From: a virus
Length of the DNA: 64,000 nucleotides
Reading direction: 5' to 3' (one strand)
Virus record (IMG/VR): IMGVR_UViG_3300023240_001094
Span: 9,452-73,451 of that record
The notes under the pieces were generated by a model, which ran no database searches, was not told where the DNA came from, and worked only from the letters and a program-made list of their open reading frames with translations. Shown here piece after piece: positions 12,364 through 63,687 of this stretch. How positions within the stretch are numbered: the stretch's first letter is position 1; every line of letters begins with the position of its first letter. Made by a program: the position numbers and the translations under genes.

Positions 12364-12376
12364 TCAGTTTTTCCCA

Positions 12377-13603
12377 TTATCGACCGGTTTTATCCCAGCC
12401 TTTTAAAATCTCTGGCGAAAAGTTGTTGTACGAAAATTCCATTCTATCAACAATCTTTACCGCATCACCACCAAGTTTATCAATTGCAACATAACCTTCA
12501 GGACCAGTTGTCCTATATCCTGTTGAGGTTTTTACGAAAGTACCAACATTAGATAATCTATTAAGAGTATTTATAAGTTTTAATTTTGCTAGAACAATCA
12601 TCTGTTGGAGATCAAAAACAAGCTTCAGGTTCTTTTTGTTTGCCCCTGAAAAGAAACTAAGGATATTATCAAGCTTCGCCTGCTTACTGGCCTTGCCTTT
12701 TTCAGTTTTTAGTTTGTCAATTTCCTTTTGGAACCGCGCTTTAATCCAATTGATAAGACCTGTAACGTGTTTGTTCGTATCGGTAATAACAGTACCTGTT
12801 CTGACAAATGAGTTACCATATGTTTCAATTAGCATAGTAAGTTCCGGCTTTGCTTCCATTTGGCGAAGAGTTGTTCCTGAAATCTGGTTGAATATTTTTC
12901 CAGCGTTAGATAGGTATGTATTAACTTCTTCGGTGTCTTTTTTAGTCATAGTGAGTGAGCTGTAATCTTTCAACATAGCGTCCTGTGACCACACATTTTT
13001 AGATTTCTTAAAGGCCGCAACATTCACCCCATATGATGCTTTCATAAGATCAAAGGTTGGACCTGTGTAGGTTGTATGCCATACAATACCGATCTTCTTT
13101 GATAGGACATCTCGCGCCATTTCTGTTTTGGCCGGAACAGCGTAAACTAAAGTGTTCGGGTGGAACGTAACATATTCAGAACCTTTAATCTTTGTTTTGC
13201 TAAGATCGCCTGGGCCAAAGAGAAAGTCACCTTGAACGACTCCTTTAATTCCTAGCTCCGGAAGATATCTTAAGGCTAGTTTTAGTTTTTCAGCAAGATC
13301 GCCTGAAGTGTCATCGTCAACTTCGGCTGGTGTTTTGTAGACCTTTGGGTTCTTATTAAAAATACCCTTTTTTGCTACAAAGAATTCCCCATCAGACGGA
13401 TCTATTCCAGCGAATACAGCCGGAGCACCATCCCATTTAACACTCACATTACCGGCCTTGACTCCAGACAACATATCACGTAGCTCGCGAAGAGCCAAAA
13501 TAGCTTGACGAGTGCCATTGACTCCTCCGTAAATAACTTTATCTTCGATGTGAGTCATATGTGTATTTTTTTGTTCTGTTATAAAGTTCTTAAAGTTTTC
13601 CAT
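12377..13603 (-). CDS. conserved T4-like protein with a nucleotidyltransferase/ligase-like motif
   Basis: MENFKNFITEQKNTHMTHIED; KWDGAPA (KxDG motif); EGYV...KIVDRMEFS. Confidence 0.75.
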   Translation of the reverse strand: MENFKNFITEQKNTHMTHIEDKVIYGGVNGTRQAILALRELRDMLSGVKAGNVSVKWDGAPAVFAGIDPSDGEFFVAKKGIFNKNPKVYKTPAEVDDDTSGDLAEKLKLALRYLPELGIKGVVQGDFLFGPGDLSKTKIKGSEYVTFHPNTLVYAVPAKTEMARDVLSKKIGIVWHTTYTGPTFDLMKASYGVNVAAFKKSKNVWSQDAMLKDYSSLTMTKKDTEEVNTYLSNAGKIFNQISGTTLRQMEAKPELTMLIETYGNSFVRTGTVITDTNKHVTGLINWIKARFQKEIDKLKTEKGKASKQAKLDNILSFFSGANKKNLKLVFDLQQMIVLAKLKLINTLNRLSNVGTFVKTSTGYRTTGPEGYVAIDKLGGDAVKIVDRMEFSYNNFSPEILKGWDKTGR

Positions 13604-19849: not shown

Positions 19850-20022
19850 GATACGGTTTCTGTTTCTAGGCCACGTATCAGACCCACATGGCTTATGCCG
19901 CTAGGGCAGAACCAAAAGGAGATGCATTTGTGTTTGCATTTAGTAGTTGTGACTGAATAACGTAGGTCAACACGGTAAACTCCATTTCATTTTCACACCT
20001 GTCGATCCTAAATTTCAGCCCC
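19850..20022 (-). ncRNA. ssrA: two-piece tmRNA, coding piece; tag (A)ANTNASPFGSALAA
   Basis: 5' GGGGCTGAAATTTAGGATCGAC; PK1-like CGTG/TACG + TGAC/GTCA; resume codon GCA at 19937, TAA at 19895-19893; 3' end approximate. Confidence 0.92.
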
Positions 20023-20466
20023 ATCATCATTGTTCTTTTTCTTAGCATGAAAGTTTAAACCAGGACTAACTGCCTTTTTACCTTGGCCTCTAATCCAACC
20101 ATCAGGAACATCTGCTCCTTCTTTAAAGCAACTTCTTTGAGTAGGATCACTAGGATTGTGATACCATTTCAAACCTTGTGTAGAACCTTTGCTTCTTGTA
20201 TAGGGTCTGTATTTCATACCCTTACGATTAGCATTGCCTTTAGCCGCACCCTTTTTACCAGATTCGCTTAACATTTCTCTAACCAATTCTTCTTTAGTTA
20301 AGAGACCTGCTAAACCTTGCCAAGCCAATTTATCTTCCCATCTACCATACTTCTCATATAGATTTTTATGCGCTTCTGCATGTTCTTCGATGGTAAGTTC
20401 TACTAAGTTACTTTCTTCGTCTGATCCGCCCAAATGCTTTGGGATGATATGGTGTTTATGTTTCAT
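20008..20466 (-). mobile_element. HNH homing endonuclease within the tmRNA intervening segment
   Basis: HKHHIIPKHLGGSDEESNLVELTIEEHAEAH; KWYHN...PDGWIRG C-terminal module. Confidence 0.9.
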
Positions 20467-20666: not shown

Positions 20667-21188
20667 TTAGAACGGGGCCGAAGTTGCACCGCTGCGATGC
20701 AGAAGCGTGTTATAAAGTGTGTCAATGTTGAAATAAAGGTCTTCAAGTGATCCGTTATTATCAACAATGTAGTCTGTCATCCATGGTTCAATTGTCATGG
20801 ATGACTTTGGTTCTGGAGGAAGATGATCTGAGCGATCGATCCAGATAGTATGATCTACTAGACCTGCATTCACAATACCATGAAATTCGCGTTTGTTTCG
20901 CAGGCCAGCATAGATGTCAGAAATCTCAAAGATTTCTCGTCCAATAGTTGCCGGATCATCTGCACACCGCGCAGCAATAAGATTATACCATTCTGAGCGA
21001 TGAGCACCACGATCTTCGAAGCATTCCTCTACGGTAGTATAACCATATAACGGCGCAAGAACCGGAAACACTGTTTTCTCTGCGTTGTGCATGCTTGATG
21101 ACGCAAACTTAACACCGTATTTCTCTTCTAGATATTCAGCCGCGGTATCTTTACCATGACGAGCATGACCAATAATAATTAGTTTCAT
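20667..21188 (-). CDS. deoxynucleoside monophosphate kinase (gp1-like)
   Basis: MKLIIIGHARHGKDTAA P-loop; DYIVDNNGSLEDL. Confidence 0.82.
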   Translation of the reverse strand: MKLIIIGHARHGKDTAAEYLEEKYGVKFASSSMHNAEKTVFPVLAPLYGYTTVEECFEDRGAHRSEWYNLIAARCADDPATIGREIFEISDIYAGLRNKREFHGIVNAGLVDHTIWIDRSDHLPPEPKSSMTIEPWMTDYIVDNNGSLEDLYFNIDTLYNTLLHRSGATSAPF

Positions 21189-21664
21189 TAATCCCAAGTT
21201 CCATCCCATTTATAAAAAATATGAACACCGTACCTTACTGTCTCATCCATTTGATACGCCCAATGTGGCTTATCAATATAGTCTGCATAGTAAAAAGTAG
21301 CGGAGCCCGTGTTGTCTTCTAAAGTGTTATTATAAACTGCTTCAGCCACTTTGTAAACCTCTGAATAAAGTTCTTTATTGCCTGGTGTGTGGTTTTTCAC
21401 AAGGTGTGTCCATGAAAACTGAAACGGTTCAAATACAACCTCACATACGGTATTTGGCCAGTTGCTATGCGCAACCCTATTCATAGTAACATGAGCAACT
21501 GCGCGTTGCCCTTCAATAGATTCTGATCTAGCTTCAAAATATATGTTCTGTGCCATACATCCAATTTCAGCTGAGTGCTGTTCCTGCTTTGCCGTTGCAG
21601 CAACAGCACCCAGTACAAATATTCCGCCGATCATGACGTTCGATAGTATATTTATTGTCATCAT
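21188..21664 (-). CDS. cell wall hydrolase (SleB/Hydrolase_2 family)
   Basis: CMAQNIYFEARSE, AVAHVTMNRV, QFSW, GVHIFY; N-terminal hydrophobic segment. Confidence 0.92.
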   Translation of the reverse strand: MMTINILSNVMIGGIFVLGAVAATAKQEQHSAEIGCMAQNIYFEARSESIEGQRAVAHVTMNRVAHSNWPNTVCEVVFEPFQFSWTHLVKNHTPGNKELYSEVYKVAEAVYNNTLEDNTGSATFYYADYIDKPHWAYQMDETVRYGVHIFYKWDGTWD

Positions 21665-21743: not shown

Positions 21744-22430
21744 TTACTGATTTGTAACAAACTCATCTACCATCGGGAATACTGTTGCGATTGCCTTAGC
21801 AACTTCCCTTGCAACTTCGATATGCTCTTTCTGTGTTCCATTTCCAGAGCGTAGTTCAATATAGTGGACCCATGAACGAAGTGTGCCATTCATATATATC
21901 TTACTTAGAGTATTGCCTTCTGGGAAAACACATCGTGCTTGTTCCTTAGCAATACCACGTGAGATAGCCCAATCATAAGACTCTCGGGCTTTTTCAATTA
22001 CACTCAGTTGACGTGCTGCCCATTCACGCTGCAATTCCTGATCTTGAGTCTCAACGCTATTCTGGCGATTCTTATGGTCTTGAAGTCGTGCTTCTCTCAG
22101 AACAAAAGAAACATCAAGACTGTCAGGATCGGCATAACGCTGACTGAACTCTTGAAAATAGAAGCTTCTGTGTCGAAGAATTTGGCGTGCAATATCACGT
22201 GTTGTGTCAATACCAATGGTTGCATTACACATTTCAAGTGGTGACCAATGCTTATGTTTAACGAGATATCTAACCAGCTTTTCACCAGACTCGCTGTTGA
22301 ACTGATTAGCCGGGTTAGATACTCTCGCGCAGTAAGCGATGAGCTCAAGAGCATCATCAAAATGCTCTTTAAACTCATCAGCGGGTGCTGGTTGAACTAC
22401 TAGAAATGCCTTTGGTTTCAGGTAATTCAT
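21744..22430 (-). CDS. thyX: flavin-dependent thymidylate synthase
   Basis: HWSPLE, RHRSFYFQEFSQRY, EQAR and TQKEH. Confidence 0.96.
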   Translation of the reverse strand: MNYLKPKAFLVVQPAPADEFKEHFDDALELIAYCARVSNPANQFNSESGEKLVRYLVKHKHWSPLEMCNATIGIDTTRDIARQILRHRSFYFQEFSQRYADPDSLDVSFVLREARLQDHKNRQNSVETQDQELQREWAARQLSVIEKARESYDWAISRGIAKEQARCVFPEGNTLSKIYMNGTLRSWVHYIELRSGNGTQKEHIEVAREVAKAIATVFPMVDEFVTNQ

Positions 22431-24161: not shown

Positions 24162-24459
24162 CTGATTCCTTTTCCTCCAGTGCTTTCACTGAGTACGTTA
24201 ATATAGATGATAATACATTACTTGCGTGTTCTTGTAAACCAGTATTTTCGTCGGTTAAAGAAAGATCTGGGGAGGAAACAACATCAAAGTTAAACTTTAG
24301 ATATTCATCATCGTCAGACACAGTAAGCTCGCTAAACTTGATGACAGTTTCAGTATAGTCCCCAGTGAGAAGGCGAACGTCCCAATTTTCGCCTTCACTA
24401 GGAACCAATTCATAATCTACATTCTGTTCGAGTAGAATTGTTTCTTCATATGTGTTCAT
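24148..24459 (-). CDS. acidic hypothetical protein (gp40 position)
   Basis: Between uvsX and gp41, overlapping both. Confidence 0.65.
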   Translation of the reverse strand: MNTYEETILLEQNVDYELVPSEGENWDVRLLTGDYTETVIKFSELTVSDDDEYLKFNFDVVSSPDLSLTDENTGLQEHASNVLSSILTYSVKALEEKESDDKR

Positions 24460-25538
24460 TAGTCTTCCTCTGGGTCCGCTGATACAATAGCCGGTTGATC
24501 TACAATAGCATTCATATCAACAAGTGACTCATGGCCAATCTGATATTGCTTTTTAAGGAACTCTTTAAAATCAGTATCCTTCATAATTGGATCCCAGAAT
24601 TCGCCACTGAGAGTATCTTTCTCTCGGCGCTTTGGATCCATAAGCTCACCAGTTTCTTGATCAACTCGGCAATACCAACCAGCGCTTGGTTTAGTGACGT
24701 ATCCGCCAGCCATAGCAGCATCTAGCAGACCGGAGTATTTCTCAACACCACCAGACCATGAAACAGAGATAGGAATCTTAGATTTTTCTTTGACGTAACG
24801 TGATTTTTCAACGTTGATCACAAAGTCATAGCCCATAATCTCAGTGCCTGATTTATTTTGGCGACGACCAAGAATCCAGATGTTGTCGGCTGAGTAGTAA
24901 ATTCCAGTGCCGCCTGAAACAATTGCCTTAGGAAACAGACCAATTTCTTGATATGTGTGGTTGATAGCCAACATCGGAATGTTCTTCATGGCAAGATATG
25001 GAGTAGCCATACGGAACAGGCCTTTAAGAGCTTTTGCGCGCGACATATCCGCTACTGATTTTTCGTTCAGCGCATCTTCCATTTCTTTCTTAGATGCAAG
25101 GTTACCAATAGAGTCAATAACAACAATGACGTTTTCCTTACGGTCAATTGACTCAAGCTGGTTAATCAGGTCAAATTTAAGTTGCTCCACGTTCATGATT
25201 GGTGTGTGAAGAACTCGTGCTGGATCAATACCGAATTGCTTGAAGTACGACTGGGGTGAACCAAATTCCGAGTCATAAAATAGGATAACAGCATCCTTAT
25301 GCTTATCAAGATATGCACCTGCCATAAGCAAAGCAAATGATGTTTTAAAGTGTTTTGACGGACCAGCCAATACTGTAAGGCCTGAGGAAAGTCCACCGTC
25401 ACAGTCACCAGAGAGCGCTACGTTAACCATAGGAACGCTTGTTGGAACTTGATCTTTTTCGTTAAAGAACTTAGATTCAGATAAGATTTCTGTTGTCTTA
25501 AGTGTAGAGTTCTTTTTTAGTTTGTCCATAATTGACAT
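24459..25538 (-). CDS. uvsX: RecA-like recombinase
   Basis: GPSKHFKT, FYDSEFG, DSIGNLASKKE and SGGTGIYYSA. Confidence 0.97.
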   Translation of the reverse strand: MSIMDKLKKNSTLKTTEILSESKFFNEKDQVPTSVPMVNVALSGDCDGGLSSGLTVLAGPSKHFKTSFALLMAGAYLDKHKDAVILFYDSEFGSPQSYFKQFGIDPARVLHTPIMNVEQLKFDLINQLESIDRKENVIVVIDSIGNLASKKEMEDALNEKSVADMSRAKALKGLFRMATPYLAMKNIPMLAINHTYQEIGLFPKAIVSGGTGIYYSADNIWILGRRQNKSGTEIMGYDFVINVEKSRYVKEKSKIPISVSWSGGVEKYSGLLDAAMAGGYVTKPSAGWYCRVDQETGELMDPKRREKDTLSGEFWDPIMKDTDFKEFLKKQYQIGHESLVDMNAIVDQPAIVSADPEED

Positions 25539-25566: not shown

Positions 25567-26394
25567 TTATTCATATTGTACTTTTTGCTCGATTTCACGC
25601 GAGTCTTTTTCATAGTTCTTGCGGTACTCATTATTGGCTTTAATCACCGCGTCCAATACAGAAAGATCAGGGCAGAAGTTACGAATGGCTGCAGTGTCCT
25701 TAGGGAAGCATGAACCACCATAACCGCGTTTACCATCAAAACCTGGAACCTTCATATGTGAATGTCCGATTCGTGGATCTGATCCAATAGTATTTGAAAT
25801 TACATTGTATCTATCACCGGTATTATCTACCATATCTTTCCACTGATTGAACCATACGACTTTCATAGCAAGAAAAGAGTTAATGCCATACTTAACAAAG
25901 CTTGCTTCACTTGCTGTCATATAATGAACAGGAGCCGGATTACAATTTGAGTTAAACTTGTAGAGGTTTTTAACTCGTTTTGTAAATTCAGGATGGCCAC
26001 CAAGAACGTGGAACTCAGGATTTAGAAACTCGTCAAAGGCATTTCTCTCGGTAAGAAATTCAGGGTTATAAACGAAGCGCTTATATGCACAGATATTTTC
26101 AATGATATCTGGAGTCACTGTAGACTTGATAATAACTGTTCCTGAGGCCATTTGGTGAAGATGTTTAGCCACGGAATTGATGATTGTGTCATCAATTGAA
26201 CCATCAGGTCCCATAGGCGTTGGAACACACACAAATGTAAAGTCGGCACCGAAGTCTTCCATATCATCAATGTTTGAATGACCTTGATACGGATCAACAA
26301 TCATAATTTCATTTGATGAATTACGAAAACCAAATTCAACGGCTTTTCCAACGAAGCCGTATCCAATAATAGCAATTTTGGTAATCTTTTTCAT
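25567..26394 (-). CDS. UDP-glucose 6-dehydrogenase family protein
   Basis: GYGFVG, CVPTP, IKSTV, NPEFL, KYGINSFLAMK, DPRIG and GYGGSCFPKD. Confidence 0.92.
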   Translation of the reverse strand: MKKITKIAIIGYGFVGKAVEFGFRNSSNEIMIVDPYQGHSNIDDMEDFGADFTFVCVPTPMGPDGSIDDTIINSVAKHLHQMASGTVIIKSTVTPDIIENICAYKRFVYNPEFLTERNAFDEFLNPEFHVLGGHPEFTKRVKNLYKFNSNCNPAPVHYMTASEASFVKYGINSFLAMKVVWFNQWKDMVDNTGDRYNVISNTIGSDPRIGHSHMKVPGFDGKRGYGGSCFPKDTAAIRNFCPDLSVLDAVIKANNEYRKNYEKDSREIEQKVQYE

Positions 26395-26531
26395 TAATGC
26401 TTCCCTACAGAAAAAACGCTTATAAGGCGAGAGCCTTCTTCAACAGCACGACGTTTAACCTCACTTACAGTAATACCATGCTCATCTGCTACTGCTTTAT
26501 ATAGTGCATCGATAGCTTCTTTAGTTGACAT
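26394..26531 (-). CDS. small hypothetical protein (45 aa, MSTKEAIDALYKAV...)
   Basis: Fills the gap and overlaps both neighbours; not in the ORF track. Confidence 0.55.
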   Translation of the reverse strand: MSTKEAIDALYKAVADEHGITVSEVKRRAVEEGSRLISVFSVGKH

Positions 26532-27468
26532 TATAATATCCTTTGTACCATGTCATAAATTTCTCGACACCAACCGGTAATGGTGTAGATGGACTATATC
26601 CAAGTTTTCTAATCTTTGCTGTATCGGACCAGGTGTCTTTGGCATCAGCCGGATGCATGTCAGCCAATATACGCTTTGCCTTTTTACCTAGATTAATTTC
26701 GATATGATCAACAAAATCAGTTAGTTTAACCTGCTGTCCATAACCAATATTATATATCATATCTTCAGGATGTACACGTGAAATGGTGTTGTTCACAAGA
26801 ATAACTATACCATTAACGATATCATCGATGTATGTAAAGTCACGAGTCATGTCACCGTGATTGTAGAGCGTGATCGGATTACCCTTTACGATATTATTGG
26901 CAAAGTCAAAGAGTGCCATATCAGGTCGACCCCAGGGTCCGTAGACCGTAAAGAATCGAAGGCCTGTTGTATTTTTAATTTTAGAGCAGGCAAATTGTGA
27001 CTCGTTGGCAACCTTTGTCATAGCATATGGATTAGAAGCTCTACCGACATTGTCATCCTCAGTCCATGGAAGAGGGTTTCCGACCATACAGCTTGATGTC
27101 GAGGCATATAGCACGTGATCTACACCATGCTTAACTGATGCGTTAATAAGATTCTGTGTGCCGGTTACGTTATTATCAATGTATTTTTGAGGATCGGCGA
27201 GCGAGTGTCTCACGCCTGCATAACCAGCCAAATGAATAATCACATCAGGTTTATGATTACCAATATATTCCTCAACAAACTCGGCATCCTTTAAATCACC
27301 ATATGGAACTGAAATAGAAAGTTGATCAGCCCGAGCATATTTTAAAGTCTGGTCATAATAATCATTATAGCTGTCAAATGAGCACACTATATGACCGTCC
27401 TCAATTAAACGGTTAATAACATGAAACCCGATGAATCCCGCACCACCAGTGACTAGTATTTTACTCAT
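26521..27468 (-). CDS. NAD-dependent epimerase, UDP-glucuronate 4-epimerase-like
   Basis: TGGAGFIG, HLAGYAGVRHSL, YAMTK, GLRFFTVYGPWGRPDMA and RDFTYIDDIV. Confidence 0.92.
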   Translation of the reverse strand: MSKILVTGGAGFIGFHVINRLIEDGHIVCSFDSYNDYYDQTLKYARADQLSISVPYGDLKDAEFVEEYIGNHKPDVIIHLAGYAGVRHSLADPQKYIDNNVTGTQNLINASVKHGVDHVLYASTSSCMVGNPLPWTEDDNVGRASNPYAMTKVANESQFACSKIKNTTGLRFFTVYGPWGRPDMALFDFANNIVKGNPITLYNHGDMTRDFTYIDDIVNGIVILVNNTISRVHPEDMIYNIGYGQQVKLTDFVDHIEINLGKKAKRILADMHPADAKDTWSDTAKIRKLGYSPSTPLPVGVEKFMTWYKGYYNVN

Positions 27469-28307
27469 CCAAAGATATCCTCAAGGATAGAAGTTTCAGC
27501 TTGTTTCTTTTTAACAGCGTCTTTATACGCTTTAGACCACTGCACATGACACGCAAGCTGCTTAAGACCTTTCAGTGGACCACTAAGTGCTTCTTTTTCC
27601 TTTAGCTTAATATAATCTGGATAGAGAGCCTGTAGCTTAGTGTGAACTTCATTGATAAGATCAGTTGTTCTATATACTGAACAACCACCCTTTTCATTTG
27701 TGACAGCAACCGTCACACGGAACTTTGTTGAAATACGATTCGCATAACCCTGGGTCAACAACTGAAGATTAGCATCAAAGTCCTGAGCAGTTGGCAAACG
27801 GTCCCAGATAAGATCACGTGGTAAGTTTGCAGAGTCAAAATAGCAATTCGTCATAATACGTGCATTATTCATGATTGGCCAATAGAACTCGGATGGAACA
27901 ACTGTTGAGGTTGCGAAAGCACCATGGTGAATTCCCTCACTCATCCACGTATCAAAATCAGTAAAGGCATCATCAAAATCCTGCGGAGTCATTTCACGCG
28001 TGGCCCATTTAGTTGTAACATTGTCGGCAGGAGTCGCAGGAGCTTTATGTTTAAAATAAATAAGATCATCATCAAGAACCATATGCTTTGTTCCATAAAA
28101 GTTATCCCAGATCCATTGGCGTGTAGGCGATAGCTTGTTTATTTCCTTTGGTAGACGAAGTACTTTATTAGGATAGCGCTCGTTCATTGCATCATATTCA
28201 TGGTCCTGAACAACAAATTGAACCATTGACTTAAATTTGTCAGGCAGGCGGTTATACGTTTTTTGTTTGTCCATACGACCGAGGGTTGGAATGATTAGAT
28301 GTTCCAT
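27465..28307 (-). CDS. GT-A fold DNA glycosyltransferase-like protein
   Basis: IIPTLGR start, MVLDDDL (DxD), QDFDANLQLLTQGY and GGCS, typical of phage base-modifying GTs. Confidence 0.78.
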   Translation of the reverse strand: MEHLIIPTLGRMDKQKTYNRLPDKFKSMVQFVVQDHEYDAMNERYPNKVLRLPKEINKLSPTRQWIWDNFYGTKHMVLDDDLIYFKHKAPATPADNVTTKWATREMTPQDFDDAFTDFDTWMSEGIHHGAFATSTVVPSEFYWPIMNNARIMTNCYFDSANLPRDLIWDRLPTAQDFDANLQLLTQGYANRISTKFRVTVAVTNEKGGCSVYRTTDLINEVHTKLQALYPDYIKLKEKEALSGPLKGLKQLACHVQWSKAYKDAVKKKQAETSILEDIFG

Positions 28308-28741
28308 TCAATAAATTCCCATTTTACATTTGCCTCAGATAGCATCTGAGATGAAAGTTTCCATGATGCCTTCCACTTGTCACTGACATCTTGCAAAGGC
28401 ATTACTACACGCTTTACACCAACCTGAATAACACCTTTAGCACATTCGGAACAAACCGGCAAGCCAGTCACATATAAAGTGCAGCCGTCAAGTGACACAC
28501 CGTTATATGACGCGTTATAGATTAGATTTTGTTCAGCATGTACTATATATCTGTATTTTTCCTCGCGCGTATTGAGGCGCTCTGATGTATCGGCTATTCC
28601 ACGCGGGAAACCGTTAAAGCCCTGTGATAAGACCTGGCCTTTAGATCCAACAGCAACAGCTCCAATTTTACTTGACGGATCTTTTGACCAAGATCCAACC
28701 TCATATGCCAGTTTTAAATAACGCTCATCCCACGTAGTCAT
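28295..28741 (-). CDS. cd: dCMP deaminase
   Basis: SKDPS, GFNGFPRG, HAEQN and PVCSECAK. Confidence 0.94.
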   Translation of the reverse strand: MTTWDERYLKLAYEVGSWSKDPSSKIGAVAVGSKGQVLSQGFNGFPRGIADTSERLNTREEKYRYIVHAEQNLIYNASYNGVSLDGCTLYVTGLPVCSECAKGVIQVGVKRVVMPLQDVSDKWKASWKLSSQMLSEANVKWEFIEWNI

Positions 28742-28779
28742 GATATATTACTCCAATTTATAATACTACTATACAACAT

Positions 28780-29007
28780 TCACCCTGAAATGTACACATC
28801 ATTTTTCGGTCGATACCAAACTTTTTGATTATGAATTCTACCGAGAAGATCATAAATTGCAGATGTTTCCTCACTAAGGTCTAAAATCTTTTTTGCCGTA
28901 GTTGGTGTCTGACAGAGCTTTGAAAGCTCCGCCAGTCTAGTATATAGTGCCTGTTCAATATGAGAAATATCGTTGACCGTGAGTTTAAAGTTTTCATTAG
29001 GTTTCAT
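28780..29007 (-). CDS. hypothetical protein
   Basis: 75 aa; LLGRIHNQKVWYRPK motif. Confidence 0.65.
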   Translation of the reverse strand: MKPNENFKLTVNDISHIEQALYTRLAELSKLCQTPTTAKKILDLSEETSAIYDLLGRIHNQKVWYRPKNDVYISG

Positions 29008-29009
29008 AT

Positions 29010-29687
29010 TTAAACCTTAACAAGATTGAAATGTTTTTCATACACGTGCAAGTTCATTACCTGCCAATGTAAGTCACCTTTTTCAACACTAACGCCATGA
29101 TAATTAAGTGAGTCTACGGCATAATCCATGAGGTACTGTGCCCATGCGTAGTCATTTTTATATCCGAACACAACATCATTTGATCGCATCTGGCTTACCA
29201 TATGAAGCTTACCGTCACGGATGTAGAACGTTTGAGCGTTGGTGCAAATAAAATCATTCTTACCATTCTCGTTAAACTCAATCCAAATTGAAGGGCGGTT
29301 ATAGATCATCTGGGCACGACGAGAGTCTGGATTAGAAACAAGCTCTTCAATAGCTTTATAATACTGTCCAAAATACTTATGTGAAAACAACAGGTGTCCA
29401 TAGTTAGAGTTAATTTCGCCATTATCGTTGGCGGTGTATTTCCACGCGGCTGGTGGTTCCTTATCTTTGTGTATATCATTAATATTTGTAGACATTGAGT
29501 TGTACCACTCAATCTCAGACTCAATGTAAGATTTGTTTGGAACACCAAAAATTGAAGGTTCATCAGCAATAAAGCTAGCACCTAAAATCTCAATTGTTTT
29601 TTGCCCAGTTTTATCTGCTGTAAAGTTTTCATTACGAAGTTCGTTTACAAAATATTCACGGATGGTTTCAACATTAGTTACTGTCAT
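29010..29687 (-). CDS. gp42: dCMP hydroxymethylase (thymidylate synthase superfamily)
   Basis: INSNYG, DSRRA, DFICT and MRSNDVVFGYKNDYAW, matching T4 gp42 including the dCMP-specifying Asp. Confidence 0.88.
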   Translation of the reverse strand: MTVTNVETIREYFVNELRNENFTADKTGQKTIEILGASFIADEPSIFGVPNKSYIESEIEWYNSMSTNINDIHKDKEPPAAWKYTANDNGEINSNYGHLLFSHKYFGQYYKAIEELVSNPDSRRAQMIYNRPSIWIEFNENGKNDFICTNAQTFYIRDGKLHMVSQMRSNDVVFGYKNDYAWAQYLMDYAVDSLNYHGVSVEKGDLHWQVMNLHVYEKHFNLVKV

Positions 29688-30105
29688 TTTTGATTAGTTC
29701 CTTTTCATATACTCTGCTTCTCAACCCTGATGAAGAAAAGCGATGATCACGTTTGTTAAAATATAGAGAGATGCCGAGTTTACGACATTCATCCTTACCA
29801 GTGAAGTCTTTGTCTTTATATTCCTCACCAAGAACTCTAACATTAATTGGGTACATTGTTATTATATCAAGAAGGTCTAATTCTGTACAATAAACAATTA
29901 TCTCATCCACATATTTTACTGCAGCAAGTTGAGTGTACCTTTCAACGATAGATTGAATTGGTGCATTTTTTTCCGAGCGGTCTTGACTTGGATCTACCTG
30001 AAGCCCACATATAAGATACTCGCATTGGTCCTTTGCTTCTCGAAGCATCTGGATATGCCCTGAATGAAGAAGATCAAAGGTTGATGCAGTGAATCCCACT
30101 TTCAT
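29674..30105 (-). CDS. TagD-like cytidylyltransferase
   Basis: FDLLHSGH (HxGH), ERY...KYVDEI and RDHRFSSS. Confidence 0.9.
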   Translation of the reverse strand: MKVGFTASTFDLLHSGHIQMLREAKDQCEYLICGLQVDPSQDRSEKNAPIQSIVERYTQLAAVKYVDEIIVYCTELDLLDIITMYPINVRVLGEEYKDKDFTGKDECRKLGISLYFNKRDHRFSSSGLRSRVYEKELIKNDSN

Positions 30106-30386
30106 TACGACGTGTATCCCTGGGAATATGATACTGTTTGATTAGCACCGGACTCTGTGTAATATATGTAAATACAAAAGCCAATAATTAGCCAGAAGAT
30201 TGTAGAATAAAAGAACACTACAATAGGGCTACGTGCCTGGCGTGACGTGGCGAACACTTTACCCTTTGGTGCAAGGATGTATCTAAACCAAAGGTAGATA
30301 CGGCCTGGGAGAGCATACAGTGTCCATAAAAGCGTAAAGCTTTGGCGGTCTAAAACGTCAGGGTTGCTGCTTCTTTTTCGTGCCAT
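30105..30386 (-). CDS. small membrane protein
   Basis: Two hydrophobic/aromatic segments. Confidence 0.6.
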   Translation of the reverse strand: MARKRSSNPDVLDRQSFTLLWTLYALPGRIYLWFRYILAPKGKVFATSRQARSPIVVFFYSTIFWLIIGFCIYIYYTESGANQTVSYSQGYTS

Positions 30387-30496
30387 GATATTACTTCCTT
30401 TTCACTGGCTTGAGTGGTTTAGTTTTCTTTTTTGTGTTCAAATTCTAGCGAATTGCACCTGATTTTGTTTTAACGAGTCTTGGCTGCTTTGCCATA

Positions 30497-30943
30497 TTAT
30501 TTTCCTTTAATTGTAAGTCCGTGAGTTTCATTTCCAGTCTTTAGAGCATCTAATACCAAGTCGCGCGGAATATATCCAATGATTTGATAATGAACTGCAT
30601 CACCAACCTCAAAGTTTTTGCTCCAATCTTTCTTTATATAACTCCATGCGACAATATTATCAATAATGCCGCGCTCAAGTTTATCTCTAATATAAGCAGA
30701 GATGGTAACTTCGCGCTTGGAGTTAACATGTTTAAAGTCACAGTTACCAAAGAATTTATGAGTTGTATCATATTCATAACCCTCATAAACTGTATGTCCA
30801 TTATTCAAGGAAGCCTGATGAAACTCAACAAACTCAAAATCCCACTGGCGGTACGGATCAATACCGGTTCGTGTATCAGTCGAGGCAATTTCGTTGCGGC
30901 GAGTGATAAAATCTTCAGTAACAATACCTTTATATTTAGTCAT
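30497..30943 (-). CDS. hypothetical protein
   Basis: 148 aa, TAATG coupling to the upstream gene. Confidence 0.65.
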   Translation of the reverse strand: MTKYKGIVTEDFITRRNEIASTDTRTGIDPYRQWDFEFVEFHQASLNNGHTVYEGYEYDTTHKFFGNCDFKHVNSKREVTISAYIRDKLERGIIDNIVAWSYIKKDWSKNFEVGDAVHYQIIGYIPRDLVLDALKTGNETHGLTIKGK

Positions 30944-31902
30944 TATATTTTCCTATATGCATATTCCAAAGCACGATTGGCTTCGATTTCAATTGGGCGG
31001 TTTTCATACCAACCACCATTTTCCATGTCAAACTGTTTGCATAGTTCAGCTATCTGTGTCGCGGTTATTGGATATTCCTTTTCAATAGCGCGGGAAGCTA
31101 TAGCAACCATCATACCATACATTTTTGCATACCATCCTGTATCAGAAATGGTTGCGTATTCAAGAGCCATTTTACGTGGCCAAAAGGGGCAATCGTGATA
31201 ACTTGACCAAAAGATGCCAGTGTTCTGCATTTGATTTTTGCGGTGGCTAACAACTTGCTCCACTAGCTCAGGTGGCAGCCTATCGAGAAATGATCCGGTC
31301 GCTTTAGCTCTTTCAACATAAGGATACGCAGAAAGAAGATCAGATACGTTAATAGGCTTACCGTTACCACTAAAAATAAAATTGTCTGCTTGGTTGTAAT
31401 TAGCAGGAACATAATACATTCGACTAAGGTCTTTACATTGCTTATCACCAGAGTCATCAAGACGTGATTGAAGTGCAAACCAAAAGTGTTTGATTTCATC
31501 AACAGATACGTCACGATCAAGTTCGAATACAAGTCTGAACTTTTTCTTATTAGGACGAGAGCTAGCAGTGCTATAACAAACAAAACGCCAATCAGGAACT
31601 AGATCACGAACGTATTCGTTTAATTCACCATCAATATCAAGGTCGTCAATATCAACAGCACACCAGCCTGCCCAAGCAGTAACATTTTTGTTGGCGCGTT
31701 TGGTTCCAGCTTCGTAAACAGCCGGAGAAATAAGTTCTGCATCTAGTTTTCCTTTCTTAGGTTGATTGGATAAAGCGTATAGGAGTTTCTCTAGCTCATC
31801 AAAGCTAGAGAAATCCATTCTGCGGTGCGTTTTGTTGTCATAAATAAAACGCTGGCGTTCATCCCACCAACGAGGTGGTTTAAATAGCGTTAGGGATATC
31901 AC
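30943..31902 (-). CDS. AEP-superfamily primase-like protein
   Basis: AVDIDD, YSTASS...KFRLVF and DKQCKDLSRMYYVP motifs. Confidence 0.65.
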   Translation of the reverse strand: MISLTLFKPPRWWDERQRFIYDNKTHRRMDFSSFDELEKLLYALSNQPKKGKLDAELISPAVYEAGTKRANKNVTAWAGWCAVDIDDLDIDGELNEYVRDLVPDWRFVCYSTASSRPNKKKFRLVFELDRDVSVDEIKHFWFALQSRLDDSGDKQCKDLSRMYYVPANYNQADNFIFSGNGKPINVSDLLSAYPYVERAKATGSFLDRLPPELVEQVVSHRKNQMQNTGIFWSSYHDCPFWPRKMALEYATISDTGWYAKMYGMMVAIASRAIEKEYPITATQIAELCKQFDMENGGWYENRPIEIEANRALEYAYRKI

Positions 31903-32305
31903 CGTGATTATCCTCGTGTGATGGAGGTGTCCAGCCGGAAGGCTTAAGAAGATCAGGAAGACCGAACGGATTTGGTCTGCCGGGCTTCACACCTGGTGAT
32001 TTTGCCATATTTGCATCATATACCTTATCCCAAGCAGTATTGGCATCAACGCCGAATACATCAAGTGTGCCAATGGCAAATACACAGAGATCGATAAGTC
32101 CATCAACTACTTCTTCAGAATCACGATCAAAAAGTGCAGCGTCAATAGTTTCATTCATTTCTTCCATACACATACTAAGTCGGAAGCGAAGATACTTCTT
32201 CATTAATTCAGTATCATGGCGGTTTTCAGCAAACCATTTTTTCACACCAAATTTGTGGTGCATCATTGCGATATCATTTGCCCAATCAGACATGTATTTC
32301 TCCAT
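31880..32305 (-). CDS. MazG-like (all-alpha) NTP pyrophosphohydrolase
   Basis: EEMNET...EVVDGLIDL, ANMAK and KPSGWTPP. Confidence 0.85.
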   Translation of the reverse strand: MEKYMSDWANDIAMMHHKFGVKKWFAENRHDTELMKKYLRFRLSMCMEEMNETIDAALFDRDSEEVVDGLIDLCVFAIGTLDVFGVDANTAWDKVYDANMAKSPGVKPGRPNPFGLPDLLKPSGWTPPSHEDNHGDIPNAI

Positions 32306-32322
32306 TATTATCAGTGATTATA

Positions 32323-33048
32323 TTATACGTTATTATGAAAGGAATGTACATGGTTAAATATGTCATTCCAATCTTGCACAGTTATTGAGGTACTGCACAT
32401 ATAGTTCTTATGCATTGCTGTAGCAAGTGGTCGGTCGTTGCCAGTGAATCCCATAGAGTCTCCAAAGAAAGCAATCTTAGAATCCAAGGTAAAATCTCGA
32501 AGAATTTGACTTTTATCGGAACCTCTTCTAGAAATGTCAAGTCCTGTTTCGCCAGCTACCGTTGCGTGTAAGCTTGGAAAGTTGCTATTAAATCTATTTG
32601 CAATGCAGGCGCGTTCCGATGTCAGTTTATCATATTTTACATATGACGCTCTATCCTCGGGTGAAGCAGATCTACCGACAACACTAAAGTTAACCATTCC
32701 GACTCGATGTTCAATGTGTTTACCTGTTCTAATACTAAATCCGCTTGCGCGTAATTCATTCACAAGAAAGGATAAAGCAATCCCTGGAAGTTCCCAAGAA
32801 TCAGAGAAAACCAATGTGTCTCCTTCATAAACCTCACTTCCACTACACTGGTAAACACGTTTACATTTGTTGTAGATAGTTTCACCAATCTGCTCTATCG
32901 TTTTAGGTCTGTCGCTGCCTGTTACCAAATAGACGTTATTGACGGAACAAAACTCTAGGAAAAGTTTTGCAAATACTGGATCCATTTTACATCTGCTCGG
33001 TGTAAGAGTTCCGTCAACATCAAATATATAATTAACCGAATATGTCAT
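32323..33048 (-). CDS. HAD-IIB hydrolase, phosphomannomutase-like
   Basis: FDVDGTLTPSR, VTGSD, IEHRVGMVNFS and FFGDS..GND. Confidence 0.85.
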   Translation of the reverse strand: MTYSVNYIFDVDGTLTPSRCKMDPVFAKLFLEFCSVNNVYLVTGSDRPKTIEQIGETIYNKCKRVYQCSGSEVYEGDTLVFSDSWELPGIALSFLVNELRASGFSIRTGKHIEHRVGMVNFSVVGRSASPEDRASYVKYDKLTSERACIANRFNSNFPSLHATVAGETGLDISRRGSDKSQILRDFTLDSKIAFFGDSMGFTGNDRPLATAMHKNYMCSTSITVQDWNDIFNHVHSFHNNV

Positions 33049-35536
33049 CCATAGTCACCTTTTCTTCTGAGGACCAATTAAGAACATCAAGAATAAGCTC
33101 GAGAGGTTCAAGAAATGTTTTGCTGAACTGTTTATCATAGTCAACATAACGATGTAGTTTAAGCTCTTGAGGAAGGAAGTTCGGGAATGATATAACATTC
33201 TGACGAATAGTGTTAGGTGTTTTAAGATAACAGAATTTGATTTTATCACCACCTTGAATTAACTCATATGATTGTTCCAAAGAACCTTCCTTAAGATAAT
33301 GATTATATAGCAAGCTACCGCGAACATGAATAGGAGTGCCCTTTGTAAAGATAGTCTTTCGGTCTGACCACTTTGCAATTTCGGTTACACCTCGTGGAAA
33401 GGCAACGGCCTCAGGTGGTAGTTGCTTAAACTCAGATTTAAATTGTGCAATGAATGACTGCGTTGCAATACGGTCACCAGTAAGCATCAACTTAAACACT
33501 TCTTTAAATTTATCACGGACAGCCTCGGGTGTAGAAGACTTAATAGCCTCAATACCCATGATTTTCATCTTAGGTTCCTTATATTGAACACCTTCTGAAT
33601 TGTGTACATTAAGGATATAGCGCTTTTTGGCAGCCCAGATACCACGATCAGCAATAACCTCTCGGGCCATAACCATGCGCTTGTCAAAGGCATTCATACG
33701 TTCATATAGACTATCGTATGACTTAGCGAGAAGAGGAATGAAATGCTCTTCACAGATTTTATCAAGAGCTTTAACCGGATCAGTTGGATTAAGCTTTTTC
33801 ACAAAGGATCCGAAGTTCACATAAACAGAGTCTGTGTCAATAGCAATAACATAATCACGGCCTGTTGTACCAAGAACCTTATTCATTTCTGCGTTAATGG
33901 TTCGCTCAGCCCATTGAATAGTCAGCTGACCAGAAAGTGTGATACCTTCAGCCATCCGCATATCGAAGTATCTGAAGTAACGGTTACCAAGAGCACCATA
34001 GAGTGAGTTTAGAAGAATTTTAATAGCCATCTGACGGTTTTCAAGCTGGTTAATTTTGCGTTCAAGCTCGACAGATTTGTTCTGTTGATACTCTTGTTCA
34101 GCCCGGAGCATCTCACCTTTAACTTGTTTACGTTCAGAGTAATAGTCAACAATAATTTTCGGAAGGAATCCTTGACGATCTTTCCTATATGCAGATCCAT
34201 TGACTGCAACAGCGACATCCATATCCAGTGCTCGTGGATCTACATCGTTGTGCATGTAATGTTCTACACCATTAATGAATCGACCATCCATGGATTTAAC
34301 AAGTGTTTCCGGTGACATGTTATATTGAACAATCAAGTTTGGGTAGAGTGAGTTAAGGTCAAAGGAAACAACCCACTCATGTGAACCAGTCTGTGGTGCT
34401 TTAACGTAGCCACCGGGATATGGATTTTTAATCTTGTTGGTATTGGCTGGGACCGCGATTTTAGACTTGTTAAGCTCACGGTAGATAATAGAGTCCCATA
34501 TACCAGTAGTACCAAATGTATCAGAATAGTTAACGCCTGCCTTATAGGCCATAGTCAAGGCAAGAGTAATCAAATCCATTTTCTCATCAATACGCTCAAC
34601 AAGTTCAACGTCTTTGATATTATAGTCAATGTACTTTTGATAGTTTTCTTTATAGAGGTTCTGTAGATTACCATATTCTTCATAGGAAAGTTTACGCTCA
34701 CCGAGAACAACATAAGCAACATGATCAAGCTTATATGACTCAAGAGCGCCATATGAATAGCCAAACTTTTTAAACAGCTCGATGTAATCTAGTTGAGAAA
34801 CACCCTTAATATCATAAGCTGTTTGCTTATTACCCATAACAGTAATTTCTTGTTGATCTACTAGGTTCCATGGAGAGAAAGCCTTAACAGCTTCTTGAGA
34901 TCCAAGGTTTGCAATACGATTAAGAATATATGGAACATCAAAGAAGCGAATATTCCATCCGGTAATCACGTCAGGATAGTCTGCCTTCCAAAAGGTAATA
35001 TACATCACGAGCATCTCAATCTCGTTCTTGGCAACATGCTCTTGAACAAGAAGATGGCTCATCTCAGACTTTGATTTATCCCACTCACCAAAGTGAAATA
35101 CGTGATACACCTTGGACTTACTTGATTTATGTGTGATCGCAGTAATTGGATGTCTTGCTTCATTTGGATGTGGAAAACCATCCTCGGAATGGACTTCAAT
35201 GTCAATGTTTGCTACATTAACCTTAGACCGGTCAAAGGTAATATCACCCGGAAATTTTGATGTGATAAACTGGTGAATAAAATTTGACGTGCCATATATC
35301 TCGGCATTGGAGATGTCGTCATACCGTTTACTAAATTCACGAGCATCCGCCATAGTATCAAAATTGATAGGTGCACATGATTTTCCGTCGATGGTTTTCC
35401 ATTCAGTTTCAGTCTGACTCGGAACAAACATAGTTGGTTTAAACTTATATTTGTTAGATACAGGCGTTCCATTCGCGGTGTATCCACGATATAGAATTGA
35501 GTTGCCGTAACGGCTAACATTGGTGTAAAAATTCAT
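33032..35536 (-). CDS. gp43: B-family DNA polymerase
   Basis: DIEV exonuclease, FDLNSLYP, KILLNSLYG, IDTDS and KKRY. Confidence 0.98.
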   Translation of the reverse strand: MNFYTNVSRYGNSILYRGYTANGTPVSNKYKFKPTMFVPSQTETEWKTIDGKSCAPINFDTMADAREFSKRYDDISNAEIYGTSNFIHQFITSKFPGDITFDRSKVNVANIDIEVHSEDGFPHPNEARHPITAITHKSSKSKVYHVFHFGEWDKSKSEMSHLLVQEHVAKNEIEMLVMYITFWKADYPDVITGWNIRFFDVPYILNRIANLGSQEAVKAFSPWNLVDQQEITVMGNKQTAYDIKGVSQLDYIELFKKFGYSYGALESYKLDHVAYVVLGERKLSYEEYGNLQNLYKENYQKYIDYNIKDVELVERIDEKMDLITLALTMAYKAGVNYSDTFGTTGIWDSIIYRELNKSKIAVPANTNKIKNPYPGGYVKAPQTGSHEWVVSFDLNSLYPNLIVQYNMSPETLVKSMDGRFINGVEHYMHNDVDPRALDMDVAVAVNGSAYRKDRQGFLPKIIVDYYSERKQVKGEMLRAEQEYQQNKSVELERKINQLENRQMAIKILLNSLYGALGNRYFRYFDMRMAEGITLSGQLTIQWAERTINAEMNKVLGTTGRDYVIAIDTDSVYVNFGSFVKKLNPTDPVKALDKICEEHFIPLLAKSYDSLYERMNAFDKRMVMAREVIADRGIWAAKKRYILNVHNSEGVQYKEPKMKIMGIEAIKSSTPEAVRDKFKEVFKLMLTGDRIATQSFIAQFKSEFKQLPPEAVAFPRGVTEIAKWSDRKTIFTKGTPIHVRGSLLYNHYLKEGSLEQSYELIQGGDKIKFCYLKTPNTIRQNVISFPNFLPQELKLHRYVDYDKQFSKTFLEPLELILDVLNWSSEEKVTMDDIFG

Positions 35537-36861: not shown

Positions 36862-37413
36862 ATGAAACCTTATAGAAAAATCTGGATTGATAATTTTGGT
36901 AATATTCCAACCGATGATGATGGTAGATCATTTGAAATACACCACATTGATGGGAATAGTTTAAACAACAATATCTCTAACCTAAAATGCGTCAGTATAA
37001 AAGAGCACTACGAAATACATCTTCAACAAGCAAATAAACCCCAGGATCTAAAAGAGATAAGATCCAAAGCAACAACAAATATGCATAAAAAACTTTTAGC
37101 TGAAAACCAACATTGGACAAAAACTGATGAATTTAAACAAAAAATATCTAAAATATCATCAGAAAGAAATAAAAGATTAGTTGATGAAAAAACTCATAAT
37201 TTTGTCACAAACAATCCAAGTGTTAAACTGTCCAAGGCTAGTCAACATAATTGGCAAAAAGCTAAAAATACAGTACCCTGTTATGATAAAAATGGCAACT
37301 ACTTGAGAATACCATCCGATGTTTTTCACTCCCAGCAAGGCCCTAAGGAATGCTGGGAATATGTGCATAATACTAGCATAGAAGGAAAAAAACGTAAATC
37401 ACTCAGTGAGTAA
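36862..37413 (+). mobile_element. free-standing HNH homing endonuclease
   Basis: EIHHIDGNSLNNNISNLKCVSIKEHYEIH; late promoter at 36823-36830; overlaps the hsp20 stop. Confidence 0.88.
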
Positions 37414-61992: not shown

Positions 61993-62223
61993 TCATTTTC
62001 TCAGTGCCTCTTCGATGCCGTCTAGCTTTGCGAACACAGCCTTAAAGCTCTCTTGCAGTTGCTTGAACTCTCGGTCGTGCGCCTCTTTGTTTGCCGCCGC
62101 CGTCGCTTTCAGCACCTCTATATCGGTGTGGTGGGCCTGCAATTTACTGTGCAGCATGTAAACAAACGCGACCACTGGGACGACAATGTATTTCAAAAAG
62201 AGGTCAAGCGTTTCCAATGTCAA
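61993..62223 (-). CDS. single-TM coiled-coil protein (holin-like)
   Basis: N-terminal TM, coiled coil; GC-richer codons. Confidence 0.6.
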   Translation of the reverse strand: MTLETLDLFLKYIVVPVVAFVYMLHSKLQAHHTDIEVLKATAAANKEAHDREFKQLQESFKAVFAKLDGIEEALRK

Positions 62224-62227
62224 TTCC

Positions 62228-63644: not shown

Positions 63645-63687
63645 CTTCGTTTTCCCTTAAACTATTAGCATGTCGTGCGAGTATTGA

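Follow-up and report, generated by a model that had tools for sequence, protein, structure and literature searches.

A DNA-modification island in an uncultured marine T4-like phage: likely glycosylation of hydroxymethylcytosine, with a hexuronate as a possible sugar

Between the DNA polymerase gene and uvsX of an uncultured phage lies an island of genes predicted to make and glycosylate hydroxymethylcytosine (hmC) in the phage DNA. It was studied in a window of 64 kb (the whole stretch of DNA analysed), which covers positions 9,452-73,451 of IMG/VR record IMGVR_UViG_3300023240_001094; coordinates are those of the window unless another record is named. The record itself is 73,451 b long, with an estimated completeness of ~43%. 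PHROG and Pfam scans found the core of a T4-like myovirus in the window: gp43 polymerase, clamp, clamp loader, RegA, UvsX, UvsY and a gp41-type helicase, together with gp46/47, gp55, major head protein, portal, sheath, tube and terminase. Phage C48C1 (Kyanoviridae) has the nearest polymerase, at 54% identity, and those of cyanomyoviruses follow (46-48%). Judged by its sequence, the source is an uncultured marine T4-like myovirus of Kyanoviridae-like type. At the DNA level, megablast found no match for the island among 50,697 phage records.

The island is bounded by the gp43 gene directly upstream (33032-35536) and by uvsX on the other flank (24459-25538). An initial annotation had described a block of eight genes beside the polymerase, and all eight were found, co-oriented on the minus strand from polymerase to UvsX. 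They encode a phosphomannomutase (PMM)-like HAD phosphomutase, a MazG-like pyrophosphohydrolase, a cytidylyltransferase-like nucleotidyltransferase, a homologue of the T4 dCMP hydroxymethylase gp42, a dCMP deaminase, a predicted GT-A glycosyltransferase (GT), an epimerase-like short-chain dehydrogenase/reductase (SDR) and a protein resembling UDP-glucose dehydrogenase (Ugd). A primase-like gene and three small open reading frames (ORFs) without a family match, also on the minus strand, were found in addition. Reading frames overlap between the nucleotidyltransferase and gp42 (14 b), the deaminase and the GT (13 b), and the GT and the SDR (4 b). A promoter and terminator scan gave counts close to those of shuffled sequence (45 against 37.1±6.9 and 9 against 7.3±2.8, respectively), and the evidence for an operon is the overlapping frames only.

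The gp42 homologue (225 aa; 29010-29687) matches the structure of T4 gp42 (PDB 1b5e) with E=1.9e-65 and is 50% identical to the T4 protein over 222 residues. It carries the motifs KNDFICTN and RSNDVVFGYKND. According to a 2026 paper, some phage thymidylate synthase (TS) homologues (RB69 gp48 and DLP3 gp80) make 5-hydroxy-dCMP, and four positions in E. coli ThyA numbering are diagnostic: C146 is catalytic, N177D selects dCMP, L143D/E, which admits water, accompanies formation of a hydroxymethyl group, and D169N is the mark of the hydroxylases (PMC13326640). In the window protein the catalytic Cys (ThyA C146, T4 C148) is kept, with FICTN aligned to FMCTN of T4. An Asp stands at the N177 position (T4 Asp179; YKNDYAW aligned to FRNDYAW of T4), indicating specificity for dCMP over dUMP, and another at the L143 position, three residues before the Cys (KNDFICTN, as in SDFMCTN of T4). 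At the D169 position the Asp is retained (RSND, the same as in T4), without the Asn of the 5-hydroxy-dCMP synthases. Each of the 29 gp42 homologues from the fetched loci of relatives shows the pattern RSND...ND.

Since the four diagnostic residues are as in T4 gp42, the product is taken to be hydroxymethyl-dCMP (hm-dCMP) and not hydroxymethyluracil (hmU) or 5-hydroxycytosine. The sequence thus argues strongly that the TS homologue is a T4-type dCMP hydroxymethylase, which bears out the initial annotation on this gene, and hmC very probably replaces cytosine in the phage DNA. A dUMP hydroxymethylase, which would lead to hmU, does not fit the Asp at the N177 position and was rejected. A 5-hydroxy-dCMP synthase coupled to RB69-type arabinosylation was ruled out by the Asp at the D169 position; neither an arabinose-5-phosphate isomerase or kinase nor a set of GT-B enzymes was seen. 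It had also been argued that the TS homologue is dispensable for dTMP, as thyX is encoded separately. This holds: dTMP supply is covered by the dCMP deaminase (148 aa; 28295-28741; PF00383, 1.4e-19; phrog_174, 4e-40), whose gene follows gp42 in relatives, and by the flavin-dependent thymidylate synthase ThyX (21744-22430, minus strand; PF02511, 4.3e-40). A literature search with one set of terms turned up no paper on gp42 in marine phages.

The GT (280 aa; 27465-28307) scores well above the cut-off of the Pfam TAGT family (PF20691, 58.4 against 27.5 bits; phrog_842, 7e-34). As described in two papers of 2026, this family is that of the T2/T6 beta-glucosyl-HMC-alpha-glucosyltransferase; it has a GT-A fold and is encoded in the T4 beta-gt slot beside gene 42 (PMC13216743, PMC13390438). 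The window gene lies in the same slot. The gene order in T4 is 45-44-62-regA-43-imm-42-beta-gt-segA-uvsX-40-41, and in Tequatrovirus HY03 gene 42 is followed by an ORF, the TAGT and uvsX. The order in the window, 45-44-62-regA-43-...-42-GT-...-uvsX-41, agrees with both, with the GT two genes after gp42. The window GT and the HY03 TAGT are 24% identical (E=7e-19).

The active-site motifs given for phage GT-A DNA glycosyltransferases are R...DDD...ED(Y/F) (bioRxiv 10.1101/2023.12.21.572611, Fig. 4 legend). When the window GT was aligned, R11 and D79-D81 were found to be conserved and D176 to be invariant. The TAGTs of the clade form two subfamilies, one with DDD and, in the region of residues 174-177 of the window protein, QDF, which includes the window GT and always occurs with gp42, and one with DDN and EDT, from islands without gp42. 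The window-type subfamily was found solely beside gp42 (9 of 9 islands). A structural model of the GT (pLDDT 72.6) had no Foldseek match at E<=0.001, with TarP at a probability of 0.72; VIA-align gave Z scores of 7-8.3 to generic GT-A and nucleotide-sugar transferase folds and 7.0 to TarP, a range that the tool calls middling. The PHROG scan found no second GT in the 64-kb window, and the T4 alpha-gt slot (between genes 47 and 55) is empty there because genes 47 and 55 overlap. By tblastn, none of 21 other island families of relatives (among them the alpha-GT type PF11440, GT4, C5-methyltransferase-like, cupin and KdsA/B families) was found in the 73-kb record.

The GT of the initial annotation thus belongs to a family in which DNA-acting enzymes are known, and its gene occupies the position of beta-gt in T4; on family and synteny it is a predicted DNA hmC glycosyltransferase. 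With a gp42 orthologue and a TAGT-family GT in this slot, glycosyl-hmC in the phage DNA is likely, and there is good reason to expect that the TAGT is what puts a sugar on hmC.

The two genes that follow the GT point to a candidate sugar. The SDR (315 aa; 26521-27468; PF01370, 2e-50) has as its best PDB matches 5u4q (4e-72), 6zl6 (7e-39) and 6kv9 (MoeE5; 2e-32), with GalE (5e-30), RmlB (2e-24) and UDP-xylose synthase (UXS; 3e-22) scoring lower. The first of these is deposited under the name 'dTDP-glucose 4,6-dehydratase', and a literature search found no paper on the function of 5u4q. We take 6zl6 to be the Bacillus cereus UDP-glucuronate (UDP-GlcA) 4-epimerase, and two of the three best matches are UDP-GlcA 4-epimerases. 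The motifs GGAGFIG, STSS, YAMTK and FFTVYGPWGRPDMA of the SDR align with 6zl6. A Glu or Asp-Glu after the catalytic Thr is typical of decarboxylases and dehydratases, and the SDR has no such residues. It is predicted to be of the UDP-GlcA 4-epimerase type; closest solved relatives and motifs agree on what had been proposed for it. A UDP-xylose synthase or decarboxylase, which would open a pentose route, was ruled out, as UXS scores far below the GlcA epimerases and the motif is STSS and not STSE.

The Ugd-like protein (275 aa; 25567-26394; PF03721, 57 bits; PF00984, 53 bits) keeps the Rossmann motif and GGSCFPKD with the catalytic Cys, and its model (pLDDT 90) can be superposed on UGDH structures, of which it covers 40-48%. 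It lacks the C-terminal UDP-binding domain PF03720, which was found nowhere in the 73-kb record in a search that matched in control genomes, and its alignment to the TIGR03026 profile, which has 413 positions, ends near position 300. Its scores lie below the NCBIfam cut-offs, at 129 against 189.8 bits for TIGR03026 and 74-112 against 670-757 for the Ugd equivalogs. The short form is no artefact, because the best 120 of 7,814 homologues all have 230-300 aa and the same two domains. With the UDP-binding domain absent and the scores below cut-off, a role in the oxidation of UDP-glucose (UDP-Glc) is putative. What stands of the UDP-glucose dehydrogenase named in the initial annotation is the NAD-binding and central domains; the UDP-binding domain and the curated scores do not support it in this protein of only 275 aa. 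The two-domain Ugd family, a large one of marine-phage proteins of ~275 aa, is among the more unusual items found.

The remaining pathway candidates lie nearer to the polymerase. The MazG/PRA-PH-type NTP pyrophosphohydrolase (141 aa; 31880-32305; PF01503, 7e-9, 36 bits against a cut-off of 21.3) has the MazG-like DR2231 as its nearest PDB match (1.5e-4). It shows no similarity to the T4 dCTPase/dUTPase gp56 by BLASTP (E=30), which rules it out as a gp56 orthologue; gp56 matches PF08761 and the window protein PF01503. It is a candidate dCTPase/dUTPase solely through co-occurrence with gp42, so the dCTPase role suggested for it keeps that co-occurrence and loses gp56 homology. The PMM-like protein (241 aa; 32323-33048; PF03332, 5e-18, 66 bits against 22.4) matched phosphomannomutases in all 15 of its PDB matches (best 5e-20) and has the DxDxT motif as DVDGT. 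It likely converts hexose-6-phosphate to hexose-1-phosphate. Its link to DNA modification is weak, and homologues in the cyanophages S-SSM7 (53% identity) and P-TIM68 sit in unrelated neighbourhoods.

The nucleotidyltransferase (143 aa; 29674-30105; PF01467, 3e-12) had been called a TagD-like cytidylyltransferase. The superfamily is right, and the TagD assignment fails at equivalog level: the heptose-1-phosphate adenylyltransferase model (rfaE domain II) scores slightly higher (68.4 bits, 5.5e-19; cut-off 181.5) than TagD TIGR01518 (59.7 bits, 3e-16; cut-off 165.4). Among PDB structures, ethanolamine-phosphate cytidylyltransferase is the best match (8e-19), with TagD at 2e-11. A homologue in Vibrio phage phiKT1024 (73% identity) lies in an unrelated neighbourhood. 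The further CDP-activated substituent on cytosine that the initial annotation had considered is not borne out, as the 73-kb record yielded neither a glycerophosphotransferase nor another consumer of that kind.

Related loci were then compared. A search seeded with the GT gave seven viral loci (59-63% identity). Six of them include upstream DNA, and all six have gp42 and the deaminase there; six extend at least 3 kb downstream, and all six have an SDR and short Ugd on that side. These SDRs are 26-32% identical to that of the window. With an alignment of the short Ugd as seed, the best 80 of 593 confirmed stretches were kept, many of them short loci, and gp42 was found in 22 of the 80 and a window-type GT in three. 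Complete islands, reaching from the end of the polymerase gene to the beginning of uvsX, numbered 38, of which 37 were used, in 26 distinct gene orders; L069 was left out because only one ORF separates its polymerase and UvsX matches and its order is different. The Ugd gene is present by construction in the 30 of 37 islands that were Ugd-seeded. Among the 37, an SDR was found in 29, the nucleotidyltransferase in 24, a TAGT in 20, a window-type MazG in 17, gp42 in 16, a C5-methyltransferase-like gene in 12, PMM in nine, GT4 in four and the T4 alpha-GT family in three. MazG occurs in 15 of 16 islands with gp42 and in 2 of 21 without.

A recognised GT directly adjoins the SDR or Ugd gene in nine of the 37 islands. 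Pfam searches of the gaps revealed varied DNA-type GTs at the SDR-Ugd position: a T4 alpha-GT homologue in L038 (PF11440, 3e-32), a GT4 in L022 and a second TAGT in L026. Some relatives have minimal islands of a cupin, nucleotidyltransferase and Ugd, without SDR. Of the co-occurrence of gp42, GT, ugd and epimerase that had been proposed as a check, the tie between window-type GT and gp42 holds; SDR-Ugd is kept also where gp42 or the GT is missing.

Other tailoring genes were seen in these relatives. The C5-cytosine-methyltransferase-like gene (396-408 aa; e.g. L002:8831-10057, L053:10794-11984, L038:10812-12002) stands beside SDR-Ugd in 12 of 16 islands with gp42 and none of 21 without, and does not occur in the window; it is an odd gene to find in phages whose C5 positions should all be modified. 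Further tailoring genes lie beside gp42 at L038:5221-9054, L068:3802-5227 and L053:7547-7918. L038 encodes two radical-SAM proteins and a SPASM domain along with its T4 alpha-GT homologue, genes of a Kdo route (KdsA-like and KdsB-like) occur in L068, L085 and L078, and several relatives have a small UDG-superfamily protein.

Larger records place these islands in context. The complete 156-kb genome of Phage C48C1, the nearest relative with a complete genome, has the order primase, SDR (50% identity), short Ugd (42%), UvsX. No gp42, window-type GT, MazG or deaminase was found in it by a search whose positive control matched, and it gave no TS-family or TAGT match. It encodes in a row a TET/JBP dioxygenase (472 aa), a 344-aa ORF and a UDP-galactopyranose mutase (OQ984149.1 49583-53030; L101:5584-9031), all annotated as hypothetical, and from sequence this cluster looks like a module for post-replicative base hydroxylation and glycosylation. 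Because of these three genes, C48C1 is no clean counter-example of SDR-Ugd without DNA glycosylation, and its use as one was weakened. A literature search found no paper on this phage. G001, the record of L026 (177,535 b, 86% complete), encodes two TAGTs, PMM, nucleotidyltransferase, SDR and Ugd. G004 (86% complete) has gp42, deaminase, MazG and Ugd, and neither a TAGT nor an orthologous SDR.

The window phage also carries a glycan cluster of lipopolysaccharide (LPS) or polysaccharide type. It lies just outside the window, in the 9.4 kb of the record upstream of window base 1 and 35 kb away from the modification genes (G000:C1:1647-5697, minus strand; L102), and is followed by PhoH. Its products are two GT25 proteins and a GT8-like protein, accompanied by a methyltransferase, a sulfotransferase and a protein resembling nucleotide-diphospho-sugar transferases. 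The relatives G001 and G004 have GT25 and GT8 homologues as well; C48C1 has no homologue of GT25a or GT8 and only a weak GT25b-like match (30% over 138 aa).

Several known systems resemble the island in part. It shares with the T-even pathway (T4 gp42, gp56, gp1 and alpha-/beta-GT; T2/T6 TAGT) the pre-replicative synthesis of hm-dCMP by a gp42 at 50% identity, the dCMP deaminase, the order 43 - 42 - GT - uvsX - 41 and a GT of the T2/T6 TAGT family. It differs in belonging to a marine Kyanoviridae-like myovirus, in having a MazG/PRA-PH protein and no gp56 homologue, ThyX instead of Td and a solitary TAGT of 24% identity, and in the epimerase-like SDR and Ugd-like gene directly after the GT. In RB69 and DLP3, T4-like phages that make arabinosyl-5-hydroxycytosine, a TS homologue, nucleotide-sugar genes and GTs likewise lie near the polymerase. 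Their synthases, however, have Asn at ThyA D169 and make 5-hydroxy-dCMP, where the window enzyme keeps Asp, and these phages convert ribulose-5-phosphate to UDP-arabinofuranose by other enzymes and use GTs of GT-B fold (PMC13326640).

Uronic acids in phage DNA have been described. The DNA of Bacillus phage SP-15 contains phosphoglucuronate and glucose on dihydroxypentyluracil, and the phage encodes Ugd, a phosphomannomutase, a sugar-1-phosphate nucleotidyltransferase (uridylyltransferase), GTs and dCMP deaminase (PMC5977210). The base there is a uracil derivative, and the uronate is attached through a phosphodiester instead of a glycosidic link to hmC. A distant match to the Ugd-like protein of the window is the Ugd of SP-15 (25% identity). 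In a 2023 preprint by Pyle, Lund, O'Toole and Saleh, metavirome clusters were rebuilt in E. coli (bioRxiv 10.1101/2023.12.21.572611). Its 'subclass II' GT-A enzymes are encoded beside a sugar epimerase and depend on it; the epimerase and GT of contig 57, and the GT of contig 91 alone, gave hexuronic-acid-5hmC (433 amu), and Kdo and heptose adducts were likewise detected. Mining with hidden Markov models placed GT-A genes beside thymidylate-synthase homologues, dCMP deaminase and epimerases in the same study. As hexuronate on 5hmC is shown there, modification of hmC with an acidic sugar is of a kind already known. Compared by described architecture, these clusters and, by prediction, the window have in common a GT-A (JGT/TarP-like) DNA GT adjoining an epimerase, and the GT-epimerase adjacency of the window fits that arrangement. 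They differ in that 5hmC is made there after replication by a C5-methyltransferase and TET, whereas the window has the pre-replicative gp42 and a Ugd-like gene of its own.

From these parts a pathway can be proposed. The MazG-like enzyme may convert dCTP and dUTP to the monophosphates, and the gp42 orthologue would convert dCMP to hm-dCMP, a step for which the sequence argues strongly. The dCMP deaminase and ThyX would provide dTMP. By analogy with T4, a phage deoxynucleoside monophosphate (dNMP) kinase and the host NDP kinase would raise hm-dCMP to hm-dCTP for incorporation by the gp43 polymerase. The kinase would be a 180-aa protein (20667-21209, minus strand), a weak assignment that draws on PF21448 DNMK (1e-4, P-loop region only), phrog_38514 (1.4e-46) and phrog_139 (1.4e-15). 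After replication, the TAGT-family GT-A enzyme would move a sugar from a UDP-sugar to the hydroxymethyl group in DNA. The donor may be UDP-galacturonate, with the Ugd-like protein oxidising UDP-Glc to UDP-GlcA and the SDR epimerising UDP-GlcA to UDP-galacturonate. The PMM, and perhaps the nucleotidyltransferase, might supply an extra hexose-1-phosphate or NDP-sugar. DNA modified in this way would be shielded from restriction enzymes and other nucleases.

The chain as a whole, glycosylated hmC with a hexuronate supplied through Ugd and SDR, is advanced tentatively, as a reading that falls a little short of probable; among the candidate sugars on hmC a hexuronic acid is the likeliest, and its presence there is no more than plausible. 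For the anionic uronyl group that the initial annotation had placed on cytosine, hm-dCMP synthesis, the TAGT and the SDR type are upheld and the uronate itself is plausible, with the truncated Ugd and the occurrence of SDR-Ugd without gp42 on the other side of the scale. In favour of the chain count, besides the precedent of the preprint, the SDR that is present in all 16 islands with gp42 and the GTs of other families that adjoin SDR-Ugd in relatives. A number of findings weigh against it. Besides the missing UDP-binding domain and low scores of the Ugd-like protein, the window GT subfamily has Gln before D176 (QDF) where the published motif has Glu (EDY/F). The SDR occurs also in 13 of 21 islands without gp42, PMM is found in just 1 of 16 islands with gp42 as against 8 of 21 without, the nucleotidyltransferase too is mostly seen where gp42 is missing, and these island counts are not independent, since the relatives share kinship. 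SDR-Ugd stands in the same place in C48C1 without gp42 or GT. In G001, which has two TAGTs, no TS-family or TET/JBP match was found. The enzymes of the glycan cluster could be other consumers of UDP-uronates, and the genome is incomplete (~43% in the 73-kb record).

The strongest competing explanation puts a neutral sugar on the DNA. In that case hmC would carry, for example, glucose from host UDP-Glc, and the SDR, Ugd, PMM and nucleotidyltransferase would serve the LPS-type GT cluster in making a glycan of the host surface or virion. We regard this as a serious possibility on the unlikely side. UDP-glucose is the donor of the T2/T6 TAGT (PMC13216743), SDR-Ugd is a fixed syntenic pair with or without gp42, and the unrelated contexts of PMM and nucleotidyltransferase homologues in cyanophages and Vibrio phages agree with a role elsewhere, as does the presence in the same phage of the two GT25, GT8-like, sulfotransferase and methyltransferase genes, with GT25/GT8 again in G001 and G004. 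However, C48C1 has SDR-Ugd without GT25a or GT8 homologues, the GT and SDR frames overlap by 4 b in the window, and various DNA-type GTs abut SDR-Ugd in relatives. Moreover, the epimerase-paired GTs in the preprint needed that epimerase (bioRxiv 10.1101/2023.12.21.572611). A related alternative, which we consider improbable, is that the TAGT acts in a second step, as its T2/T6 counterpart does, extending a sugar laid down by a first GT in the missing 57% of the genome to give a disaccharide, perhaps of hexose and hexuronate. The sole characterised TAGT does add glucose to alpha-glucosyl-hmC (PMC13216743, PMC13390438), and only ~43% of the genome is in the record. Yet tblastn found no PF11440-type alpha-GT in the 73-kb record, the 47-55 slot is empty, and solitary TAGTs are frequent, at 288 of 753 phage genomes (PMC13216743).

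Two more readings are given very low probability. One concerns the substrate of the short Ugd, which may act not on UDP-glucose but on the C6 hydroxyl of the DNA-bound hmC sugar, or on a sugar or alcohol activated other than by UDP through the cytidylyltransferase-like neighbour. The retention of the catalytic residues with loss of the UDP-binding domain, in the window protein and its best 120 homologues, would suit such a role, and so would the cupin-nucleotidyltransferase-Ugd islands without SDR. Against this, the adjoining full-length SDR of UDP-GlcA 4-epimerase type requires UDP-GlcA, and the remaining contacts of the short Ugd may still hold UDP-Glc. The other, about equally improbable, is that the GT does not act on DNA, which would then contain bare hmC. 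Most GT-A and GT-B matches in metagenomes are not beside base-modification genes, according to the preprint (bioRxiv 10.1101/2023.12.21.572611), and G001 has TAGTs without a detectable hydroxymethylase; but the window GT lies two genes past gp42 in the T4 beta-gt slot, and TAGTs of its type are beside gp42 in 9 of 9 islands.

The other features of the window lie outside this argument. The primase-like protein (319 aa; 30943-31902; phrog_9765 DNA primase, 1e-38) has a counterpart in all 37 islands and, by sequence, is a replication gene outside the modification pathway. Of the three small ORFs, that of 148 aa (30497-30943) has no Pfam, NCBIfam or PHROG match, and its homologues adjoin MazG and gp42 in L077, L079, L080 and L086; the others lie at 30105-30386 (no family match) and 28780-29007 (75 aa; no match in Pfam, NCBIfam or PHROG). 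Five homing-endonuclease-like ORFs (SegE GIY-YIG, HNH) are scattered among the core genes (1655-2080, 2373-3023, 20008-20466, 36862-37413 and 49262-49660), two of them on the plus strand against the general minus orientation. Within 10640-13603, a 367-aa protein matching phrog_395/3041, annotated 'cytidyltransferase' and without a Pfam match, adjoins a DUF6267 protein (408 aa, 4e-103). At 62001-64000 the G+C content rises to 0.50, as against ~0.37-0.42 elsewhere, and tail-fibre and fibre-assembly-like ORFs are found there.

If the proposed pathway is correct, T4-like myoviruses of the sea, and not coliphages alone, make hmC by the pre-replicative gp42 route, and marine phages decorate it with acidic sugars that they partly supply themselves. 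Since hexuronate-5hmC is already documented from other phage clusters, the novelty of the uronate-hmC claim is weakened and the gain would be one of breadth, not of principle: one more example of a known anti-restriction strategy. Should the short Ugd instead act on a DNA-bound sugar, redox tailoring of such a sugar after glycosylation would be seen for the first time. With TAGT, T4 alpha-GT-like, GT4, Kdo-pathway, radical-SAM and C5-methyltransferase-like genes in turn among the relatives, the comparison of sequences shows the polymerase-UvsX stretch as a predicted hypervariable DNA-modification island in an abundant marine clade. DNA modifications of this kind determine a phage's escape from particular restriction and CRISPR defences, and they impede the sequencing and cloning of environmental phage DNA.

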